Source: an uncultured Bdellovibrionales bacterium
GTDB lineage: Bacteria > Patescibacteriota > Minisyncoccia > Moranbacterales > UBA1568
Reading direction: 5' to 3'
Assembly: GCA_964624415.1 (NCBI GenBank)
Contig: CAZUWR010000002.1
Coordinates: forward strand, 76,454 to 140,453
Length of the DNA: 64,000 bases
Shown here: positions 4,877 to 59,340 of the stretch, piece after piece
Numbering within the stretch: position 1 is the first letter of the stretch
How the letters are laid out: each line of letters begins with the position of its first letter
The notes under the pieces: generated by a model
Seen by the model: only the letters and a program-made list of their open reading frames with translations
Databases searched by the model: none
Told to the model about the DNA's origin: nothing
Made by a program: the position numbers and the translations under genes

Positions 4877-4902
4877 AAAAATCTGTGAAATTATTGGGGG
4901 GA

Positions 4903-5014
4903 GAATGATATGAAGATACTATTTTTGGAGTACGTGCATTTTTCTGCTGAAAAATTTCTCGTGCTCGCCCCGTCGGGCTTCGCAAGCCTCCTAAAATAGT
5001 ATCTTCATACCATT
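4903..5014. repeat. Structured intergenic repeat family A, copy A2 (inverted orientation)
   Basis: Arms gaatgatatgaagatactatttttgg / cctaaaatagtatcttcataccattc (2 mismatches) flank core ggagtacgtgcatttttctgctgaaaaatttctcgtgctcgccccgtcgggcttcgcaagcctcc. Confidence 0.8.
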
Positions 5015-5119
5015 CTCGCGACCTATGCAACGAATTCCTAAATTCTGGAAGTTTAGTGTGATACAAAAAATCCTTGATACAACCAGTATATCAAGGATAG
5101 CTTTACAAAGAAAGGTTAC

Positions 5120-6850: not shown

Positions 6851-6945
6851 TTAAACTTATACGTGGGTTAGACAATGTACTATCCAGTATACCAATAAAG
6901 CCAAAAAAGTCAAATAAAAAAGAACTACGCTCAAACGCGGAAGTC

Positions 6946-7086
6946 TTAGTAACTGTCTAAAATCTTTCCGTTTTTTGCTTTTGCATAGTGTTTTTTCGAA
7001 CTGCCGGGTCAAAGACGAAAGGCGAGAAAAAATACTATGCAAAAGCCAAAAAACAAGAAGGGAAAGATTTTAGACAGTTACTTAGT
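6946..7086. repeat. Structured repeat family B, copy B1 (~140 bp near-perfect hairpin), located in rpmH-dnaA spacer
   Basis: ttagtaactgtctaaaatctttccgttttttgcttttgcatagtgttttttcg [loop aactgccgggtcaaagacgaaagg] cgagaaaaaatactatgcaaaagccaaaaaacaagaagggaaagattttagacagttactaa. Copies at 25098 and 35730. Confidence 0.85.
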
Positions 7087-8673: not shown

Positions 8674-8785
8674 GGATAGGAATGAAGACTCTTTTTTGGA
8701 GGCTTGCGAGACTGTCGAGGTGAGCACGAGGAATTTTTCAGCAGAAAAATATCCGTACTCCGAAAAAGAGTCTTCATTCCTATCC
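8674..8785. repeat. Structured intergenic repeat family A, copy A3 (dnaA-dnaN spacer)
   Basis: 26 bp arms ggataggaatgaagactcttttttgg / ccgaaaaagagtcttcattcctatcc. Core identical to A1. Confidence 0.85.
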
Positions 8786-9966: not shown

Positions 9967-10089
9967 AGTTCCTTTGAGTATATATCTTCCGCCGGGTACA
10001 GGATATTTTTCTGCTGAAAAATTCCTTGCGCGCTCGCCCCGCCGGGCTGCGCGAGCCCCCTTGCGAAAGACATATACGCAAAGGAACGT
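9967..10089. repeat. Structured intergenic repeat family A, divergent copy A4 (dnaN-DUF721 spacer)
   Basis: Arms agttcctttgagtatatatcttc / aagacatatacgcaaaggaacgt. Core retains ggatatttttctgctgaaaaattcc and GC-rich hairpin cgctcgccccgccgggctgcgcgagc. Confidence 0.7.
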
Positions 10090-18007: not shown

Positions 18008-18103
18008 ACAACGAGAATCAATGAGCAATTAGCAGTTAACAATTAACGGATACTATATGAGGCGAGAATTTCGTTGATTGTTAATTGTTTTTTGTTGATT
18101 GCC

Positions 18104-23053: not shown

Positions 23054-23112
23054 AATGTTGTCGTTTGTATCTTTACGAGAGCAACGTAAAGAGATACGTG
23101 AAATTAAAAGGC

Positions 23113-23229
23113 GGGAATGATAAGTGGATATTATTTGCTGAGTACGTGCATTTTTCTGCTGAAAAATTTCTCGTGCTCGACCCGTCGGGCTTCGCAGGCC
23201 TCCGCAAACAATATCCGCTTATCATTAAC
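23113..23229. repeat. Structured intergenic repeat family A, copy A5 (rpsT/ruvA divergent spacer)
   Basis: Arms gggaatgataagtggatattatttgc / gcaaacaatatccgcttatcattaacc. Core tgagtacgtgcatttttctgctgaaaaatttctcgtgctcgacccgtcgggcttcgcaggcctcc. Confidence 0.8.
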
Positions 23230-24027: not shown

Positions 24028-25101
24028 ATGGAAACTACCACACGAGAGCAGATGCGAGTATTGCAAAGCCATATAGCGGATGGCGGTTTTTTGCAATCCA
24101 ACGAGTGGCTTCACTTTCAGGAATTGCTCGGACATCGCATTTTTCATTTCGAGGCGGACGATTGTTTCGCCAATATCATCGAGTACACACTTCCACCAAT
24201 AGGGAAATACTGGTATATTCCTCGCGGACCGGTCATCATCAATCAACAATTAACAAACAACAATCACCAAACAGCAATCAACAGACAGCAGACGACAAGT
24301 AATCATAAACCATCAGAAGCCTTTTTACACAGCATTGTCGTAAAGGCGAAACAGGAGGGAGTCGGCTGGATCCGCATAGAACCCGCGAAAGAAAGTGATC
24401 TGTCCGTATGGGAACAATTTCCAGAAGTGTCTATCAAAAAAGCCGCACACGATACACAACCGCGCGAAATCCTGGTGATGCCGATCGATGGGACACAAGA
24501 AGAAGTCCTGGCACGGATGAAATCGAAAACCCGTTATAATATCCGCCTCGCCGAAAAGAAAGGCGTCAGAGTCTTTACCTCTCACGAACAAGAACATATC
24601 GATACTTTCTGCGATTTAGTGGCTATCACGGCCAAACGCGATGGTATTGTGCCGCACCCGCGCGAGCACTATCGGAAAATGTTGCAGGCGATTCCGGATG
24701 CTATGCTCAAGCTTTATCTTGCCGAGTATGAGGGGACTATCGTCGCAGCCAACCTCGTTGTGTTTTTCGGAACCTATGCGACTTATCTACATGGCGCATC
24801 GGGCAATATCCATCGTGAGGTGATGGCACCGTATCTTTTGCAGTGGCGGCAGATACAGGATGCCAAAAAAAACGGTTGCGAACAGTACGATTTCGGCGGT
24901 GTTAAAACGAAGGATGCGAAGAATACCTGGGGAGGCATCACTCGCTTCAAACAAGGATTCGCGCCCGCGCAGGATGCGACGCATTTTCCGGGCAGCTACG
25001 ATGTCGTACTCGCTAGCAATCGATACCGGGCCTATATCGCATTGCAAACTCTGAAAAAAGCGTATAGAATGGTGAGAAGAATAGTGCGCAATATGTGCTA
25101 A
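24028..25101 (+). CDS. FemXAB-family aminoacyltransferase (peptidoglycan interpeptide bridge formation), with Q/N/T-rich in-frame insertion
   Basis: 357 aa. FemAB-like region HGASGNIHREVMAPYLLQWRQIQDAKKNGCEQYDFGGV. Insertion QQLTNNNHQTAINRQQTTSNHKP at 24241..24300 encoded by CAATCAACA-type repeat. Confidence 0.55.
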   Translation: METTTREQMRVLQSHIADGGFLQSNEWLHFQELLGHRIFHFEADDCFANIIEYTLPPIGKYWYIPRGPVIINQQLTNNNHQTAINRQQTTSNHKPSEAFLHSIVVKAKQEGVGWIRIEPAKESDLSVWEQFPEVSIKKAAHDTQPREILVMPIDGTQEEVLARMKSKTRYNIRLAEKKGVRVFTSHEQEHIDTFCDLVAITAKRDGIVPHPREHYRKMLQAIPDAMLKLYLAEYEGTIVAANLVVFFGTYATYLHGASGNIHREVMAPYLLQWRQIQDAKKNGCEQYDFGGVKTKDAKNTWGGITRFKQGFAPAQDATHFPGSYDVVLASNRYRAYIALQTLKKAYRMVRRIVRNMC

Positions 25102-25237
25102 GTAACTGTCTAAAATCTTTTCGTTTTTTGCTTTTGTATAGTGTTTTTTCGAACTGCCGGGTCAAAGACGAAAGGCGAGAAAAAATACTATCAAAAGCCA
25201 AAAAAACAAGAGGGGAAAGATTTTAGACAGTTACTAA
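25098..25237. repeat. Structured repeat family B, copy B2
   Basis: Fills entire gap between stop of FemX-like gene and next ORF. Same orientation and loop as B1 with few substitutions. Confidence 0.85.
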
Positions 25238-34457: not shown

Positions 34458-34542
34458 GGAGGGGTCGCATAGTGGCCTAGTGCGCTTGCTTGGAAAGCAA
34501 GTGTGGGGCAACCCACCGGGAGTTCGAATCTCCCCCTCTCCG
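34458..34542 (+). tRNA. tRNA-Ser (anticodon GGA)
   Basis: Cloverleaf by eye: acceptor GGAGGGG/CCTCTCC (one G-U), anticodon arm CTTGC-TTGGAAA-GCAAG (anticodon GGA), long variable arm, T-arm GGGAG-TTCGAAT-CTCCC. CCA not encoded. Confidence 0.85.
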
Positions 34543-34558
34543 CATTTTTAAAACAACT

Positions 34559-35720: not shown

Positions 35721-35729
35721 CGCAAACAG

Positions 35730-35868
35730 CAAGCGACCGTCTGAAATATTTCCGTTTTTTGCTTTTGTATAGTGTTTTTTCGAACTGCCGGGTCAAAGAC
35801 GAAAGGCGAGAAAAAATGCTATCAAAAGCCAAAAAACAAGAGGAAAAAGATTTCAGACAGTTGCTAAA
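35730..35868. repeat. Structured repeat family B, copy B3
   Basis: Same hairpin. Arm substitutions are compensatory (gtctGaaat / atttCagac versus gtctAaaat / atttTagac in B1/B2). Confidence 0.85.
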
Positions 35869-37111: not shown

Positions 37112-37115
37112 GATG

Positions 37116-37508
37116 TGGAGCTGATGGGAATTGCACCCATGTCCAGTAATGTTTTCCTGCAATACTCTACAAGCTTAGTTTGCTTTTTGTAAGCCTCAAA
37201 AGTACAAAACAAACCAAGTCTTTTGAGTCTAGACGCTTTGTGCAAGGGGTCTCATCGAAAAAGCGGCTGAAATGATGAGTCCTTCCCGATGTATGACACC
37301 AAGATCTCCGTACCGGGAATCGGGAGCTTGATGAATTTGGAATTTAAGCCAAATTGAAGGCGAAAGTAGGTGTAAAAGCTTGCGCTAATGCCTGCTTGGC
37401 CTTTGAAAAGACGTTTGCAATTGTCATGATGAGAGATGGTTTACGATAATACCCTCATAATCGGCTTGCGTATTGTAAAAGGACACCCTGTCGAGTCTAA
37501 ACAACCCC
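37116..37508 (-). ncRNA. ssrA: tmRNA (SsrA)
   Basis: Minus-strand 5' end GGGGUUGUUUAGACUCGACAGGG matches tmRNA 5' consensus (GGGGnUGnUUnnGAUUCGACGGG). 3' end ...AUGGG-UGCAAUU-CCCAU-CAGCUCCA gives T-arm plus acceptor 3' strand pairing with 5' GGGGUUG, including the G3:U70 pair. Candidate tag frame GCA AAC GUC ... UUU GCC UUC AAU UUG GCU UAA (…AFNLA*). Starts 8 nt after smpB stop. Confidence 0.65.
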
Positions 37509-49712: not shown

Positions 49713-50924
49713 TTACTCGAACACGTATCCAGTTGGTACGGTTACGATACCGCTTTCTGGATTCTTTTGGTCGAAATACAGTCCACGAGCCACATCATCT
49801 TCTCGATTATAGCCAATGACAGTATCTGGTGGAATAACAACCCCCTCACAGATAATAGCCTTCTGAATTTTGCAGCCTTTATGAATAACTACATTATCAA
49901 ATACAACCGTATTTCTGATAATTGATTCATAAAGAAGGCTACTTCGTCCGATAAGCGCTCCATCCACATCGCATCTTTCGACGATAGCCCCACCAGCCAA
50001 GGCAAAGATCCCGTGAGAATAATTGTTTTTCCCCATTGGTAGGTTATCTGTCCCGGTTCGCATAGGCCAGTCTTTATTGTAAAGATTGATAGATGGTTTC
50101 ATTGAAACCAAATCCATACAAGCATTCCAATAAGATTCTACGGTACCGACATCTTGCCAGTAGTGCTCAGTTTGTCCAGGGATAACATTATCTTGATAAT
50201 TGTATGCGAACATAGGTATGTTATCATCCAACATCTTTGGAATAATATCGTTGCCAAAATCATGACCAACAGTATCGTCATTGAGAATGGTTTCTAAATC
50301 AAGCAGATTGAAAAAATAGTGACCCATCGAAACCAGAGAACGCCCTGGACGCCCTGGAATTTCAGCTGGGCATTCAGGTTTTTCAGTGAATTTTTCTATA
50401 CGGCCAGCGTAATTAACGGTAAGCACGCCAAACCTCGACGCATCTTTCGTATTTATTTCCATAGCACATATAGTGCATGAGGATTTCGTCTGTAGATGGT
50501 ATTCATACATTTGTTTGAAATCAATAGCTACAACATGGTCTCCAGAGAGAACCGCGATATGTTGAGGATTTCCACAATTTTTAATAATACCAAGGTTTTG
50601 AAGGATAGCGTCAGCAGTCCCCCGATACCAATCATCGATTCCATTTGCTTGTTGCGGATGGATAGTATAGATGGAAAACCCAAGAAGTGGTGCTGATGGC
50701 CAATTTTCATTCACATGAATATTGAGCGGGTGCGCCAAGTATTGTGTTGCTAGAAGTATTCTTCTGAATCCTGAATTGACAGAATTTGATAACATAAAGT
50801 CAATGATTTTATGTTTACCAAAAGGAACAGCTGGTTTTGGTAAGACGTTTGTAATAGGACCTAAACGACCGCCTCTGCCGCCAGCCAAGATAATTACAGG
50901 TACACTATCGATATATTCTGACAT
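49713..50924 (-). CDS. glgC: Glucose-1-phosphate adenylyltransferase (GlgC-like: NTP-transferase + left-handed beta-helix)
   Basis: VPVIILAGGRGGRLGPITNVLPKPAVPFGKHKIIDFMLSNSVNSGFRRILLATQY closely follows GlgC N-terminal consensus. C-terminal LbH repeats. Confidence 0.7.
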   Translation of the reverse strand: MSEYIDSVPVIILAGGRGGRLGPITNVLPKPAVPFGKHKIIDFMLSNSVNSGFRRILLATQYLAHPLNIHVNENWPSAPLLGFSIYTIHPQQANGIDDWYRGTADAILQNLGIIKNCGNPQHIAVLSGDHVVAIDFKQMYEYHLQTKSSCTICAMEINTKDASRFGVLTVNYAGRIEKFTEKPECPAEIPGRPGRSLVSMGHYFFNLLDLETILNDDTVGHDFGNDIIPKMLDDNIPMFAYNYQDNVIPGQTEHYWQDVGTVESYWNACMDLVSMKPSINLYNKDWPMRTGTDNLPMGKNNYSHGIFALAGGAIVERCDVDGALIGRSSLLYESIIRNTVVFDNVVIHKGCKIQKAIICEGVVIPPDTVIGYNREDDVARGLYFDQKNPESGIVTVPTGYVFE

Positions 50925-53974: not shown

Positions 53975-55135
53975 ATGTTTGAAATAACCCAACAAGAAGG
54001 CGCGAGCCGTCACGGTACGCTGACCACGAGAGCCGGCGCCCTACAGACACCGTTTTTTATGCCGGATGCTACCCGTGCATCCGTGCGCGGTCTGACGTCC
54101 GATGAAATTGCCGATACTGGCGTGGGCGCACTTGTGGTAAATACCTATCATTTGCTTTTGCAGCCTGGCGAAGAGCTCATTGGGCATGCTGGCGGAATAC
54201 ATCGCTTTATGCGCTGGGATCGGCCCATACTTTCCGACTCGGGCGGATATCAGGTTTATTCGCTTATACATAAACATCCCGGGACGGGTAAAATTACCGA
54301 AGAGGGTGCACAGTTTCGTTCGACTCGCGACGGCTCAAAACACCTGCTCACTCCCGAGCGAGCGATACAGGTGCAGTTTGATCTTGGAGTGGACATGATG
54401 GTATGTCTGGATGATCCGCGTCCCAATGATGTCAGTGAAGAAGAAGCATCCGCAGCAGTGGATCGGACGCTGCGATGGGCGAAACGATGTCGGGAGGAGT
54501 ATGATGGACAGATAGCGGCGAGGGCAATGACCGATGCGAATCGTCCGCTTTTGTTCGGTGTCGTGCAAGGCGGACTCTTTGTTCCATTACGGGAGCGATG
54601 CGCCCAAGGACTGGCAGCTCTCGGGTTTGATGGGTACGGTTTCGGCGGGCGGCACATCGGTGAAGATGGGCAGTTTCTGACGGATATACTTGCGAAGACG
54701 GCAGCGTTTATTCCGGAGAAGAGTATTCGTTTCGCGCTCGGTATCGGAACACCTGCGGATATCGTGCGTTGTTTTGCACTCGGGTGGGATATGTTTGACT
54801 GTGTTATCCCGACGCGTGAAGGGCGGCACGGACGATTGTTTGTGTGGAAAGACTTGTCAAAGAACGATGAGCATAGAACAATAAACGAAGAAAAGGCGAT
54901 AAGCAACGACACTGTATTGCCAGATGATTTCTATGAAACTATTAATATCAACAATGAACGGTTCAGAGAAGACTTCACCCCTATCGATTCGACATGTGAT
55001 TGCACAGCTTGCAAGCAGTATTCAAGGGCGTATATAAGGCACTTGTTTTCCGTCAGTGAACCTTTGGCACAGCATCTCACTTCTATTCACAACCTGCGTT
55101 TTTATGCGAGGCTGATGGAACGCTTGCGAAAATGA
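53975..55135 (+). CDS. tgt: Queuine tRNA-ribosyltransferase (tRNA-guanine transglycosylase), with in-frame low-complexity insertion
   Basis: Tgt signatures (LSDSGGYQV, zinc site CDCTACKQYSRAYIRHL). Insertion NDEHRTINEEKAISND (54858..54910) shares the 16-mer aacaataaacgaagaa with 30327..30343. Confidence 0.9.
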   Translation: MFEITQQEGASRHGTLTTRAGALQTPFFMPDATRASVRGLTSDEIADTGVGALVVNTYHLLLQPGEELIGHAGGIHRFMRWDRPILSDSGGYQVYSLIHKHPGTGKITEEGAQFRSTRDGSKHLLTPERAIQVQFDLGVDMMVCLDDPRPNDVSEEEASAAVDRTLRWAKRCREEYDGQIAARAMTDANRPLLFGVVQGGLFVPLRERCAQGLAALGFDGYGFGGRHIGEDGQFLTDILAKTAAFIPEKSIRFALGIGTPADIVRCFALGWDMFDCVIPTREGRHGRLFVWKDLSKNDEHRTINEEKAISNDTVLPDDFYETININNERFREDFTPIDSTCDCTACKQYSRAYIRHLFSVSEPLAQHLTSIHNLRFYARLMERLRK

Positions 55136-55169
55136 GGCTTTTTTGCTAGAGTAAATGCGTAGTTCAGAT

Positions 55170-55192
55170 GACTGGGAAATCCCAGTTTTTCT
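55170..55192 (+). terminator. Small intrinsic terminator after tgt
   Basis: gactgggaaatcccagtttttc. Confidence 0.45.
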
Positions 55193-55218
55193 TTTAACAA
55201 AAGAGAGTAGGTGGAAAG

Positions 55219-55959
55219 ATGAAAAATATATCAGTAGGGGCGAGCGGCATTATTGTTGCCGCCGATGTCGCAAATCATGAGGACTTGCGTTTGTTGTTAA
55301 CTGCATTGAAAGATATCCGCGGGATAGTGGGAGTGAAGGTTGGTTTTTTGCTCGCGATGCAAGGTCTTGAGAAAACGGTGAACATAATTCGCGATATACT
55401 TCATGATGATGTCGATATCATTTATGATCATCAGAAGGCTGGAAATGATATTCCGGATATGGGCATACCCTTTGCAGGGGCTCTCAAGCATGCCGGTGTC
55501 AATGGAGCTATTTTGTTTCCTTTCGCCGGACCGGAAACGCAGACAGTGTGGACACAAGCATGCTTTGACGAAGGTCTTGAAGTATTGACCGGAGGCATTA
55601 TGACGCATGCGAGGTTTCTTGTCAGCGAAGACGGGTATATCGATGATGCCGCTGCGTTTGAAATATATGAGCGGGCTGCAGATTTGGGTTGCCGACACTT
55701 CGTGGTTCCCGGAACAAAAATCGATTGGGTTATCAAGATTCGTACTTATTTGGACGAGTCGCTCGGTGTGGGCGAGTTTTCTTTGCATGCCCCGGGATTT
55801 ATCACTCAAGGCGGCGATATATCCGAATGCGGTAAAGCAGCCGGAGTGAGTTTCTTTCCGATTGTGGGAAGGGCTATTTACGGAAAAATTGGAGTTGCGG
55901 CGCAAAAAGCCGCAGCGACAGACATTGCTGAAAAATTCCTTGTTTATATGAGTGATTAG
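55219..55959 (+). CDS. Orotidine 5'-phosphate decarboxylase family protein (PyrF/KGPDC-like)
   Basis: 246 aa. VKVGFLL…IIYDHQKAGNDIPDMG (DxKxxDIP-type) and C-terminal IVGRAIYG resemble ODCase-family signatures. Sits between tgt and a 68 bp copy of the tgt 3' end. Confidence 0.5.
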   Translation: MKNISVGASGIIVAADVANHEDLRLLLTALKDIRGIVGVKVGFLLAMQGLEKTVNIIRDILHDDVDIIYDHQKAGNDIPDMGIPFAGALKHAGVNGAILFPFAGPETQTVWTQACFDEGLEVLTGGIMTHARFLVSEDGYIDDAAAFEIYERAADLGCRHFVVPGTKIDWVIKIRTYLDESLGVGEFSLHAPGFITQGGDISECGKAAGVSFFPIVGRAIYGKIGVAAQKAAATDIAEKFLVYMSD

Positions 55960-56025
55960 TCAATGTTTCAAAGAGTTATGGTAGAGCACAATATGTTCTG
56001 AACGTGCTGAGTAAAATTTTAGAGG

Positions 56026-56066
56026 TGGTGATGAAAACTGCAGTAGTTTTCATCACCTTTTTTGAA
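56026..56066 (+). terminator. Intrinsic terminator
   Basis: ggtgatgaaaact-gcagt-agttttcatcacc + TTTTTT. Confidence 0.7.
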
Positions 56067-56166
56067 CCATATTTTAATTTTTTTTAAAAATGTAAGGCAT
56101 TTCGGGGTTGAAAAATACCACCTGGTTTTGTATTTGAGATTAATGCTGCCCACTCTTCGTCGCAGA

Positions 56167-56234
56167 ACCTTTGGCGCAGCATCTACCTCTATTCACAACC
56201 TGCGTTTTTATGCGAGGCTGATGGAGCGTTTGCG
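56167..56234 (+). repeat. Duplicated 3' end of tgt (68 bp, ~90% identical to 55061..55128)
   Basis: cctttggcgcagcatctacctctattcacaacctgcgtttttatgcgaggctgatggagcgtttgcg versus tgt cctttggcacagcatctcacttctattcacaacctgcgtttttatgcgaggctgatggaacgcttgcg. Encodes the …SIHNLRFYARLMERLR C-terminal peptide. Confidence 0.85.
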
Positions 56235-56327
56235 GGGAGAATAAGTATATGGAAAGAATAGAGTAGTAGGAATAGAAAAACCCGCGGTAACCTTTTGGTC
56301 GCGGGTTTTTTTGTCTTTTTTGTTCTC

Positions 56328-56726
56328 TTAGAATGAGAGTTGAAAAAGCTTCTTATTGTTATTGTTTGTGAACATAATTTTGCCAGAAGCTGTTTCTGCA
56401 GTAATATGTCGTATCTGAGCATTGTCGGTAGTTTCATCTTTAAGATGCTCGTATATCGCGACATCCTCAGGATAGACTGAAAAAGATATTTTTTTATTAC
56501 CTAACCTGACAAGAATATAGTAACGAACAAGAAATGGGCGTTGTGTAGATTTGTAAGGCGTAATTCCAACAACAACTGCATTTCTTTCCGATTTCCGGAG
56601 CTTTTTTAGAAACTCTTGGGTGGTGATGGGCGTTCCATCAGAGGACTGTTTTCCTGCGCGACGACCCAATACATATGCGGCAACAAGGAGTATGCCTATT
56701 AGAACTACAAGTGTCGGTGTGCTCAT
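56328..56726 (-). CDS. Membrane-anchored hypothetical protein
   Basis: 132 aa, N-terminal TM helix. Confidence 0.4.
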   Translation of the reverse strand: MSTPTLVVLIGILLVAAYVLGRRAGKQSSDGTPITTQEFLKKLRKSERNAVVVGITPYKSTQRPFLVRYYILVRLGNKKISFSVYPEDVAIYEHLKDETTDNAQIRHITAETASGKIMFTNNNNKKLFQLSF

Positions 56727-56937
56727 GATGTTTCTCCGGTCATCGAGAGGGAATCGGATTGCCCCATTCCTCGTGACCTACCTTTCTATAGAAGCACGGA
56801 GGAGTAATTTTGTCAATGATTTCGGACATATACGGTATTCGCGATGGGATGATCAAAAAGAAAACGCACCACCCCGGTTCTTTACGATTGTGTAAAGAGG
56901 GTGATGCGTTGTGAGGGTTAAGAGAAGCGGCGGATAA

Positions 56938-57717
56938 TCAAATGGGAGGTGACTTTTCCGGAAGGAGCCCTTCGATATACGCTTCCGTATCCGACATATC
57001 GCCGTTATGGGCATTATCGATTGCCTTTTTGATGTTTTCGATACAGGCGGTTTCTACAGAAGCTTCTTTCACCAATTGACTCAGCTTACCGCTATGATTA
57101 TCAAGAAATTCCTCAAGAAAGGATATATCCGTTTCTGGTGGAAGGTTTTGCTTCGCTAACTCAATAACGGATCGAGTCGTGGTAGTTGTAGCATATTCCA
57201 CATCCCGTTGTTTCACGCGTTCTTCTAATGACTCCGCTTTGGATTGAAGAAGACTTTCCAAAACATTCAACACTGCATTCCGATTGTCAGGTCGCACGCG
57301 AAGCATATCCAGAAGATGATTGATAGTAAAGGTATCGTGAGTGGCTGCGTACAGTGCTTCCTCGTAGTACTTGTTGAAGAGGTTTCGTTGATACTTATCC
57401 ATGAACTTCTGATAGAATTTCGGCCGCCAGTAGCGAAACAGTATATCCAAGCAAGGAACAAGTTCCGGTTCAGGCAGTGCTGATGCTTGCGGCGCATAGG
57501 TTAAAAGCTTTTTTGGTCTGAAATAGATGTCGCTTGCCACAAAACAAATCGGCACACATAAAGCTAGAAGACTACCGGCAAGCATGTTAGTGGATACTAC
57601 GAAAGCAGACCAGATCATTCCGAAGATGATGAAAAATAATATCAACACGAGAAAACTTCGTATGAAGTAGCCCATATCGAACGGTGGGCGTGTTGCGGGG
57701 TGAGCGTATGTATTCAT
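56938..57717 (-). CDS. Membrane hypothetical protein (2 N-terminal TM helices + cytoplasmic domain)
   Basis: 259 aa, no recognisable family. Confidence 0.4.
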   Translation of the reverse strand: MNTYAHPATRPPFDMGYFIRSFLVLILFFIIFGMIWSAFVVSTNMLAGSLLALCVPICFVASDIYFRPKKLLTYAPQASALPEPELVPCLDILFRYWRPKFYQKFMDKYQRNLFNKYYEEALYAATHDTFTINHLLDMLRVRPDNRNAVLNVLESLLQSKAESLEERVKQRDVEYATTTTTRSVIELAKQNLPPETDISFLEEFLDNHSGKLSQLVKEASVETACIENIKKAIDNAHNGDMSDTEAYIEGLLPEKSPPI

Positions 57718-57862
57718 GAGAGATACCTCGTGGGAGTAGTTGAGATTGAGACGAAGTTGTTAAGTTACCGCATTGGCCGGCCTGGAAAAAATATGACGTT
57801 TCCGAGAGCTTTATGCCAATACGCCACTGTATCGCAGTGAATGAGTTTTGTCAATGAAATCT

Positions 57863-57892
57863 TTGACATATCGGGAAAAAACCCGCTATAAT
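57863..57892 (+). promoter_or_regulatory. Sigma70-type promoter TTGACA-N18-TATAAT upstream of glyQS
   Basis: Consensus hexamers seen directly ~30 nt upstream of ORF start. Confidence 0.5.
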
Positions 57893-57921
57893 AGGGTATA
57901 AGCTATTCTATATACATCCCT

Positions 57922-59340
57922 ATGAAAGAGACCGTAACCGTAACCGTAACCGAAACCGCCATGGAAAAAATCGTCTCTTTGTGCAAGCGGCGCGGGTTCG
58001 TGTTTCCTTCTTCGGAAATCTACGGGGGACTCGGCGGAATCTACGATTACGGGCACTACGGCACGCTTCTGAAAAACAATATCCGCGATGCTTGGTGGAA
58101 GGCTATGGTGCAGTTGCGCGATGATGTGATCGGTCTGGACAGCGCTATCTTTATGCATCCGAAAGCATGGGTGGCATCGGGACATGTCGAGACATTCAAT
58201 GATCCGCAGGTGGACTGCCGAAAATGTAAGAATCGCTTCCGTGCCGACCATCTCTTGGAGGAGTTCGGTATTGAAGCGGATAAACAGCCGCTCGAGTTCA
58301 TCAATGCACAATTGGATGTATTGAAAAAAGAGAGAAAGCTCAAGTGCCCTCACTGCGGCGCGGAGGATTTCACTCCGGCCAAAGTCTTTTCGCTGATGGT
58401 TAAGTCTAATATCGGTTCCCCGACGGACGCCTTGTCCGAAGACACAGTAGTGTATCTGCGACCGGAAACCTGCGGGGGCATTTATTTGGAATACAAAAAC
58501 ACCGTAGACTCGACGCGCGTCAAAATCCCGTTCGGTATCGCGCAGGTCGGCAAAGCTTTCCGCAATGAAATCGTGGCGAAGCAATTCGTCTTCCGTACAC
58601 GCGAATTTGAGCAATTGGAGATGCAGTACTTTCATCACTCTTCGCAAACGAAAGAGAAGTATGAAGAGTGGAAAGAAGCGCGGTGGCGGTGGTATGCCGA
58701 TATGGGGGTGGATATGAGCCGCTTGCGATGGTTCAAACACCTCAAATTGGCGCACTATGCCAGCGAGGCGTACGATATCGAATTCGATTTCAAATCCTTG
58801 GGAGGCTTCAAGGAAGTGGAGGGTATCCATGCGCGCGGGGATTGGGATCTGTCCCAGCACGCGAAGTTTTCCGGCAAAGATCTCTCGTATTTCGACGACA
58901 AAACCGGCGAGCGATACATCCCGCATATTATGGAAACATCCGCGGGACTTTCGAGACTATTTCTGCTGTTTATTGATCAGGCCTATATCGAAGAGACTCT
59001 GGCAAACGGCGATGTCCGCACTGTCATGAAATTCCCGAAAAAGCTGGCGCCGGTCAAAGTGGCCGTCTTTCCTTTACTGAAAAACAAGCCGGAATTGGTG
59101 GGGAAAGCGCGCGAGATTTTCGATACGCTCAAAGCGGACTTTCAGTGTGAGTTCGACGACAATGGCAATGTGGGCAAGCGCTATCGAAGGCAGGACGAGA
59201 TCGGCACACCATACTGTGTGACCGTGGATTTTGAGAGTCTCGAAGACGGAGCGGTGACCGTCCGCGACCGGGATACGATGGCACAGGAGCGAGTGAAGAT
59301 TGATGAACTTCCGGGATATTTTAGCGCTAAGTTGAAATAG
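57922..59340 (+). CDS. glyQS: Glycyl-tRNA synthetase (class II, dimeric GlyQS type) with N-terminal TVTVTVTET microsatellite-encoded extension
   Basis: Class II motifs and anticodon-binding domain. 472 aa. (ACCGTA)x4 hexanucleotide repeat at 57925..57950. Alternative start MEKIVSL at 57961. Confidence 0.9.
   Translation: MKETVTVTVTETAMEKIVSLCKRRGFVFPSSEIYGGLGGIYDYGHYGTLLKNNIRDAWWKAMVQLRDDVIGLDSAIFMHPKAWVASGHVETFNDPQVDCRKCKNRFRADHLLEEFGIEADKQPLEFINAQLDVLKKERKLKCPHCGAEDFTPAKVFSLMVKSNIGSPTDALSEDTVVYLRPETCGGIYLEYKNTVDSTRVKIPFGIAQVGKAFRNEIVAKQFVFRTREFEQLEMQYFHHSSQTKEKYEEWKEARWRWYADMGVDMSRLRWFKHLKLAHYASEAYDIEFDFKSLGGFKEVEGIHARGDWDLSQHAKFSGKDLSYFDDKTGERYIPHIMETSAGLSRLFLLFIDQAYIEETLANGDVRTVMKFPKKLAPVKVAVFPLLKNKPELVGKAREIFDTLKADFQCEFDDNGNVGKRYRRQDEIGTPYCVTVDFESLEDGAVTVRDRDTMAQERVKIDELPGYFSAKLK

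Follow-up and report, generated by a model that had tools for sequence, protein, structure and literature searches.

The 64,000-nucleotide stretch analysed here (contig CAZUWR010000002.1 of assembly GCA_964624415.1; hereafter the window, whose coordinates we use throughout) contains the 3′ end of tgt, the gene for tRNA-guanine transglycosylase, twice: once in place, closing an intact gene (copy A), and once about 1.1 kb further on as a non-coding orphan (copy B). Between the two copies stands a divergent pyrF-like gene of the orotidine 5′-monophosphate (OMP) decarboxylase family (ODC). The host belongs to the Moraniibacteriota, a lineage of the candidate phyla radiation (CPR), and its glyS gene is 87% identical to that of the metagenome-assembled genome (MAG) STB_169 (locus L008 below). 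With moderate confidence, we interpret the window as a recombinant of two related Moraniibacteriota lineages, in which copy B would be the stranded 3′ end of a second tgt allele. The scar is most likely an ordinary trace of gene exchange and not that of a mobile element.

The repeat was delimited by a repeat scan, by alignment and by blastn of the tgt end (Table 1). Similarity between A and B extends over about 85 nt and, in the tgt frame, homology continues across both stop codons. The repeat scan resolves two blocks, 55051-55077/56158-56184 (85% identity, spacing 1107) and 55079-55128/56185-56234 (94% identity, spacing 1106), and the difference in spacing therefore places a 1-nt deletion in copy B after 56184. 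The longest exact stretch is a 38-nt core (55082-55119 = 56188-56225). Searched against the window with blastn, the tgt end gives a 71-nt match (93%, E = 1.2e-24) and no third copy across the 64 kb. An earlier first-pass annotation of the sequence had placed the duplication at 55061-55128 and 56167-56234 with about 90% identity; this is correct, and the repeat extends beyond these limits by about 10 nt on the left and by 7-10 nt on the right. Its statement that the duplication brackets an ODCase-family gene only is borne out by the repeat scan and the feature inventory: the copies enclose just an 83-nt leader, a 246-aa open reading frame (ORF), a terminator and a 90-nt AT-rich spacer. A 60-aa ORF running into copy B (56062-56244) was rejected as a gene: its TTG start lies within the T-run of the terminator, and it has neither a ribosome-binding site (RBS) nor homologs.

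The duplication is real. Two Logan contigs from SRR12487045 match the window at 100% identity, L001 over 55090-56217 and L094 over 56196-59175, so that an independent assembly holds the joints between the right side of A and the ODC unit, between the ODC unit and the left side of B, and between the right side of B and the p132 gene downstream. Both contigs break within the 38-nt core; a de Bruijn assembler is expected to break at such a repeat.

How the copies differ points to their origin. Over a 72-nt core, A and B are separated by five substitutions and one 1-nt deletion, and every one of the five substitutions is a synonymous third-position change (GCA/GCG, ACT/ACC, GAA/GAG, CGC/CGT and CGA/CGG). 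Had B been non-coding since a duplication in situ, the expected synonymous share would be about 39-47% and five out of five would have P of about 0.009-0.02; under fully random change, P would be about 1e-3. The remaining differences are a serine versus an alanine at the left edge and the tails, which read ...RLRK-stop in A and ...RLRGE-stop in B. Among Moraniibacteriota tgt orthologs, many end in ...LRK and some in ...LRGE, and VAEPL occurs. Because the core changes are synonymous only and the edge and tail variants are present in real orthologs, the copies come from two functional tgt alleles. The substitution pattern thus indicates that copy B is the remaining end of a second, truncated tgt gene, whose sequence had been shaped by coding constraint and which was frameshifted only later; it is not, as first suggested, the product of an old or decayed event.

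The nearest relative that we found, L088, shows what may have preceded the present arrangement. L088 is a 1.8-kb ENA contig (ERZ27247363) reached via its homolog of p259, a gene downstream of copy B. Read in the orientation of the window, it carries tgt (ending ...EPLAQHLTSIHNLRFYARLMERLRGK and a stop codon), a spacer of about 100 nt, the p259 homolog on the minus strand and glyS; the ODC gene, p132 and a second tgt end are all absent. Its tgt is of the window type (83-88% nucleotide identity), ends in ...RGK-stop and diverges from the window gene uniformly along its length: of 72 mismatches, 52 fall at third positions, and no crossover can be seen. The end of this tgt aligns to copy A just to 55128, and to copy B past the stop codon and for another 14 nt (L088rc 524-623 versus window 56159-56258, 84% by blastn). 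Since the alignment continues beyond the stop with B and not with A, copy B and its flank represent the native tgt terminus of an L088-like arrangement. The comparison of synteny that the first-pass annotation had proposed therefore yields a relative with the "empty" order, tgt directly followed by the p259 homolog and glyS. Two observations that it had regarded as damaging to an insertion did not turn up: none of 30 related loci has a second tgt end, and no larger conserved gene contains copy B. Two segments of the window have no counterpart in L088, namely the 1.1-kb ODC unit and some 590 nt (~56259-56845) with p132 and a hairpin. The p259 proteins of the window and L088 (298-1062) share 51% of their amino acids (62% of nucleotides), compared with 83-89% nucleotide identity in the flanking tgt and p259-glyS intergenic sequence; p259 may be either very fast evolving or exchanged.

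The ODC gene had been taken for alien cargo, and the relatives argue otherwise. The backbone recO-DUF11-tgt-(variable region)-glyS is kept in about 30 related loci, and the tgt-glyS gap spans 0.24-7.3 kb over about 23 of the loci compared. The genes in this gap are ordinary ones (U32 peptidase, FAD oxidoreductase, P-type ATPase, SLT/LysM). Locus L002 has the order of the window (IleRS, recO, DUF11, tgt, kinase, ODC, pyrE, glyS, M16, AI-2E, TP_methylase), L003 reads kinase-ODC-pyrE-glyS, and L004/L005, whose glyS is 88% identical to that of the window, read tgt-p547-ODC-PRT-glyS, where PRT stands for phosphoribosyltransferase. Since both the gene and its leader occupy this interval in relatives, the pyrF-like module is native here; comparative gene order shows the ODC gene as a resident of the tgt-glyS locus in this clade and not as foreign cargo. 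The leader persists even where the gene is gone: L008 (7163-10001) has the leader and PRT without ODC, the window (55136-57921) has the leader and ODC without PRT, and L088 has neither at this locus. The window and L008 thus represent complementary losses from a two-gene module.

The leader itself is well conserved. Its nucleotide identity to the window is 85% in L008 (8897-8969), 80% in L004 (2248-2334), 75% in L002 (9174-9242) and 68% in L003 (1600-1683); it stands before ODC in L002, L003 and L004, and directly before PRT in L008. In the window it consists of an extended -10-like element (TGCTAGAGT), a hairpin (55170-55187, also recovered by the terminator scan) that together with the TTTTTCTTTT behind it resembles an attenuator or terminator, and an RBS. 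The hairpin stem is conserved with compensatory changes and is followed by an invariant TTTTCTTTTAACAA. From this layout the leader looks like a transcription attenuator, possibly a pyrimidine-sensing one. Neither the leader nor copy B matches an Rfam family beyond sub-threshold, terminator-like hits, and the leader was not found upstream of the distant family members L089, L091 and L092.

Gene identities around the locus are discordant. Closest to L008 are the recO (69%), DUF11 (64%) and glyS (87%) of the window, yet its tgt is merely 49% identical to that of L008; compared with L008 and L004 together, glyS is 87-88% and tgt 49-54% identical. Conversely, the tgt of the window is 66-69% identical to that of another group, whose glyS is 78-79% identical to the window's, and its protein is 66-71% identical to Moraniibacteriota tgt proteins overall. 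In L002 and L003, glyS is the outlier instead (58% and 56%). The loci behind this comparison are L002 (7389-8672), L004 (3-548), L008 (6030-7163) and L010, L011, L016 and L071. The variable gap content and the discordant identities imply that recombination at the locus is recurrent, and the tgt-glyS locus presents itself as a mosaic. The suggested check of base composition and codon usage was run as well: GC content at third codon positions (GC3) is 0.44 for ODC, 0.45 for p259, 0.33 for p132 and 0.50 for tgt, against 0.53-0.65 for core genes. The value for ODC is somewhat low and its codon usage lies inside the core-gene range, so the check is not diagnostic.

Separately, we observed that in L006 (11236-15623) and L007 (8560-12947), which carry the closest full-length tgt relative (P0122, 69%), about 4.4 kb directly after tgt is nearly gene-free. 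No genes are called there in L006, which has short ORFs only, and two ORFs (67 and 34 aa) in L007; an AbiEii gene comes next.

We infer the following history. One lineage (X) would have had the promoter/leader immediately after tgt, and then the pyrF-like gene and a terminator; the other (Y) would have carried tgt, a short flank, possibly p132, p259 on the minus strand and glyS, as in L088. DNA from one lineage would have entered the other, plausibly via natural transformation. At one end it would have been joined by homologous recombination in the conserved flank, either recO-DUF11-tgt on the left or glyS on the right, and at the other end by an illegitimate joint at about 56153-56158 (J2), a combination that would amount to homology-facilitated illegitimate recombination (HFIR). 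With the joint falling about 28 codons before the end of the tgt of Y, the stub would have been kept, displaced downstream of the pyrF-like gene and later frameshifted. Equivalent routes would be an insertion that later lost the greater part of the redundant tgt, or a circularised fragment that integrated through one crossover. Two directions carry roughly equal weight: tgt and the pyrF-like gene may have been imported into an L088-like genome, which would be a gain, or the tgt 3′ end, p132 and p259 may have been imported into a genome with both pyrF and pyrE, in which case the absence of pyrE would be accounted for.

Some details of the joints bear on this history. Just upstream of copy B, at 56150-56161 in the J2 region, there is patchy CACT..TTC..GTC similarity to tgt, and its CACT..TTC part may be microhomology. 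For the other joint, the adjacency of the tgt stop and the leader (J1), we had considered that the ODC leader donated the tgt stop of copy A, which would have put the joint inside the coding sequence. This idea was withdrawn: many orthologs natively end in ...LRK-stop, so the joint may fall just after the tgt stop.

HFIR is known to join one homologous and one illegitimate end (PMC3240628), and the same model has been given for "orphaned 3′ regions" in rhs and type VI secretion system (T6SS) effector loci (PMC5361080). The window resembles the scars at rhs, contact-dependent inhibition (CDI) and T6SS loci (PMC5361080, PMC3240628) in that a conserved homologous flank anchors one end, here within recO-DUF11-tgt...glyS around variable content, the other end is non-homologous, a displaced 3′ stub lies downstream and no recombinase is present. 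The orphan also derives from a different functional allele, as its synonymous changes and ortholog-like tail indicate. Unlike those loci, the displaced gene here is a housekeeping tRNA-modification gene and not a polymorphic toxin, there is one stub and no array, no sign is seen of a selective logic like that of retained immunity genes, the host is a CPR bacterium and the parents are known by inference. As to the entry of DNA, com genes occur in Patescibacteria, and in Saccharibacteria DNA taken up by transformation is integrated through homologous recombination (PMC10633639; also PMC12455944). The window itself contains recO.

Several points weigh against a two-lineage recombinant. The argument from synonymous changes is based on just five substitutions, the tgt ends of A, B and L088 are about equidistant, and composition singles out neither side. 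J1 must already have existed in lineage X, which brings the number of non-homologous events to at least two, versus one for a duplicative insertion. No parental genome above about 85% nucleotide identity was found: the best non-self match of ODC is 67%, the best full-length match of tgt 71%, p259 has one homolog, and exact-DNA scans of JGI metagenomes with the shared tgt core and with a 32-mer common to the window and L088 returned nothing.

A duplicative insertion in situ is an unlikely origin. A pyrF-like module of about 1.0 kb would have entered at the tgt end together with a target duplication of about 85 nt, in one event followed by divergence, whether through a long target-site duplication, template switching or double illegitimate recombination. 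Such a single event would yield both joints. The repeats also have the same extent and lie immediately on either side of the module, and L088 resembles the empty site. Copy B would, on the other hand, have been non-coding from the outset, which sits badly with five synonymous substitutions out of five (P as given above), and the tails differ by a codon indel and substitutions, as orthologous alleles do. An 85-nt target duplication would be unusual, and the module with its leader is native to the same locus in relatives.

Also improbable is a RecA-mediated, Campbell-type event, in which a circularised 1.1-kb fragment (tgt 3′ end and pyrF-like module) would have entered the tgt 3′ end through a single crossover and left hybrid repeats like those (attL/attR) that bound an integrated element. 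This is a variant of the two-allele model and the one nearest to the "homologous-recombination-mediated capture" raised by the first-pass annotation, which came close to the history we favour in its mechanism and missed it in treating ODC, a gene native to the locus, as captured foreign DNA. A Campbell-type event would account for direct repeats from two alleles and for an L088-like empty site, and L001 has both its ends in one and the same core, which would likewise be seen with a circle or a tandem array. It needs, however, the circularisation of a small fragment and a crossover within 85 nt of about 90% identity, at or below the usual minimal processing lengths; informative sites compared with L088 lack the expected hybrid pattern, in which A-left and B-right would be alike; and linear HFIR gives the same product more simply.

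We consider it very unlikely that the repeats are attL and attR of a site-specific element or cassette targeting the tgt 3′ end, with an integrase lost or acting in trans, as the reading of the scar as an insertion or cassette remnant would have it. Like islands and prophages in gene 3′ ends (of tRNA, tmRNA or protein-coding genes), the extra DNA is bracketed by 3′-end repeats, with a 38-nt exact core, the gene is left intact, an empty-site relative exists and the content of the tgt-glyS region varies. Direct repeats that share an identical core are equally expected from plain homologous recombination. Unlike islands and prophages, the unit measures 1.1 kb and holds one locus-native gene with its native leader, and the repeat differences are allele-like. 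The absence of an integrase beside the cargo, already remarked on in the first-pass annotation, holds more widely: no recombinase was found among the proteins of 52-58 kb or the largest ORFs of 38-64 kb, a segment that encodes tRNA synthetases, an efflux pump, recO, DUF11, tgt, M16 and others, and no integrase among the larger ORFs sampled from the variable tgt-glyS regions of relatives. A second tgt end recurs in none of 30 other tgt loci, and searches of phages, plasmids and IMG/VR contigs gave no relative of the pyrF-like family. No known RNA or DNA element, attC-like or otherwise, was found; as for integron cassette hallmarks, there is no integrase, and the sole strong hairpin is a canonical T-run terminator, although no dedicated attC model was run.

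An integrase-free "homology cassette" would be a comparably long shot. Here the 1.1-kb unit of leader, pyrF-like gene, terminator and tgt 3′ homology would be shared among related Moranbacteria. If so, it would move as a circle or transformed fragment, and crossovers by host RecA within the 38-85-nt tgt end would account for its insertion and excision; genomes of the L088 type would represent its excised or empty states, and L001 a circular or tandem form.

Hardly credible, finally, is an assembly artefact, from two co-occurring strains merged or a de Bruijn loop wrongly traversed at the core: the Logan contigs do break exactly there and the A/B differences do resemble strain single-nucleotide polymorphisms, but the sequence at the spacer/B-left joint is unique, B, being truncated and frameshifted, is not the intact allele of another strain, L001 independently reproduces both this joint and that of A-right with the leader, and a core of 38 nt is shorter than typical reads, so that the order can be resolved from them.

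Table 1. Features from tgt to glyS, in window coordinates.
Feature	Position	Strand	Evidence or remark
Intact tgt (tRNA-guanine transglycosylase), 386 aa	53975..55135	+	Pfam TGT 393.7 bits; TIGR00430 370 bits (cutoff 306.75)
Repeat copy A, last ~28 tgt codons and stop	55051..55135	+	ends ...VSEPLAQHLTSIHNLRFYARLMERLRK, stop 55133-55135
Promoter/leader of the pyrF-like (pyrE) module, 83 nt	55136..55218	+	directly abuts the tgt stop
pyrF-like gene, divergent OMP decarboxylase family, 246 aa	55219..55959	+	all family-invariant residues present
Intrinsic terminator after the pyrF-like gene, strong, 14-bp stem and T-run	56027..56066 (stem 56027-56057)	+	terminator scan
AT-rich spacer	56067..56152	.	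without homology to any relative, without pyrE remnant
J2, putative illegitimate joint between spacer and orphan tgt fragment	56153..56158	.	alignments
Repeat copy B, orphan tgt 3′ end, non-coding	56158..56244	+	VAEPLAQHL, frameshift, TSIHNLRFYARLMERLRGE, stop 56242-56244
Native tgt downstream flank, homologous to post-stop sequence in L088	56245..56258	.	blastn, 84%
GC-rich hairpin between A-run and T-run (bidirectional terminator, orphan tgt end/convergent p132)	56276..56310	.	
p132, predicted membrane protein, 132 aa, without family match	56328..56726	-	absent from L088 and from 80 related loci
p259, ORFan-like, 259 aa	56938..57717	-	sole homolog among 5.8 billion proteins is on L088 (51% amino-acid identity)
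glyS (glycyl-tRNA synthetase), conserved right-hand anchor of the variable region	57922..59340	+	

The protein encoded between the copies scores below curated thresholds, with 18 bits for Pfam OMPdecase (PF00215; gathering threshold 27) and 43.7 bits for NCBIfam PRK13813 (equivalog cutoff 208). It nevertheless belongs to a large and well-conserved CPR family: 977 proteins are found at E <= 1e-3, many with a precomputed PF00215 hit, and a 26-sequence profile has OMP decarboxylases as its only matches in PDB (E ~3e-14). An AlphaFold2 model of the 246-aa protein (pLDDT 88.8) was compared with PDB by Foldseek; the best 50 matches are all to the ODCase of M. thermautotrophicus, with TM scores of 0.71-0.75 (query) and 0.76-0.86 (target), and the best superposition gives 0.75/0.83 at 26% identity. 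Seven residues, D16, K40, D70, K73, D77, T129 and Q197, are invariant across 26 family members. Like PyrF of the archaeal, M. thermautotrophicus type (PF00215), the protein has a predicted TIM-barrel fold and keeps counterparts of D20, K42, D70, D75, S127 (a threonine here) and Q185; unlike it, this family has the catalytic loop D-x-x-K-x-x-x-D (IYDHQKAGNDIP) in place of D-x-K-x-x-D.

As with PyrF, family members in relatives are coupled to pyrE. In L002 and L003, pyrE overlaps the ODC stop (TIGR00336, 151 and 163 bits versus a cutoff of 107), and the ODC-PRT pair is present in the distant CPR loci L091 (5760-6443) and L092 (5781-6419) and missing from L089, also a distant CPR locus. More broadly, a pyrE-type PRTase usually follows members of this CPR-specific divergent ODCase-like family (the window gene and its homologs P0002-P0120), often with overlap; the loci compared here include L002 10092-10784 and L003 2465-3166. 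The gene in the window differs in having no pyrE beside it: no pyrE was found in the 64 kb, and neither 55960-56157 nor any other part of the window shows remnants of pyrE or of a kinase gene. Most likely, judging from fold and context, the function is OMP decarboxylation in a two-step salvage of orotate to uridine monophosphate (UMP). A decarboxylase like 3-keto-L-gulonate 6-phosphate decarboxylase or hexulose-6-phosphate synthase (KGPDC/HPS), the alternative floated earlier, does not fit, because neither the profile nor the predicted fold matches anything but OMP decarboxylases, and in relatives pyrE is translationally coupled to the gene. The usefulness of the lone copy in the window depends on a pyrE elsewhere in the genome. 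A full-text literature search combining CPR or Patescibacteria with orotate terms found nothing.

The window contains other features of note. Heptad tracts resembling CAATCAA/CAATAAA recur at 18019, 24240, 30296, 34298, 38652, 46817 and 47463 and, within tgt, at 54858-54906; the tract in tgt sits in a variable insert region (KNDEHRTINEEKAISND), where the insert of L088 is about 95 nt longer. Two dispersed repeat families are present. The first has a 138-nt unit with terminal inverted repeats of about 39 nt, reminiscent of miniature inverted-repeat transposable elements (6945-7085, 25098-25237 and 35729-35866), and the second a unit of about 60-120 nt in both orientations (1960-2059, 4898-5017, 8694-8775, 10001-10038 and 23110-23226). 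A nucleotidyl-transferase/GlmU-like gene on the minus strand (49713-50924) has a GC3 of 0.33, compared with 0.53-0.65 in its neighbours, and a codon-usage chi2/df of 5.7 versus 1.0-1.8; from this composition it was probably acquired horizontally. A tmRNA gene (37113-37508, minus strand, 115.7 bits) and a tRNA-Ser(GGA) gene (34458-34543, plus strand) are not tied to the tgt repeat.

As a recombinant of two lineages, the window would provide a base-resolved case of recombination between related CPR/Patescibacteria lineages reshaping a locus. The scar is of a known kind, in a poorly studied lineage, and brings together an orphaned gene end, complementary loss of the pyrF-like gene and pyrE between sister lineages, and gene identities that disagree around a variable interval. 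It fits recent evidence that these reduced CPR bacteria are naturally transformable. The pyrF-like family, with about 1000 detectable homologs, and its leader are a by-product of this analysis that may matter more than the scar itself. CPR bacteria are thought to lack nucleotide biosynthesis, and the pairing of the ODCase-like gene with pyrE suggests that such organisms may salvage orotate to UMP.

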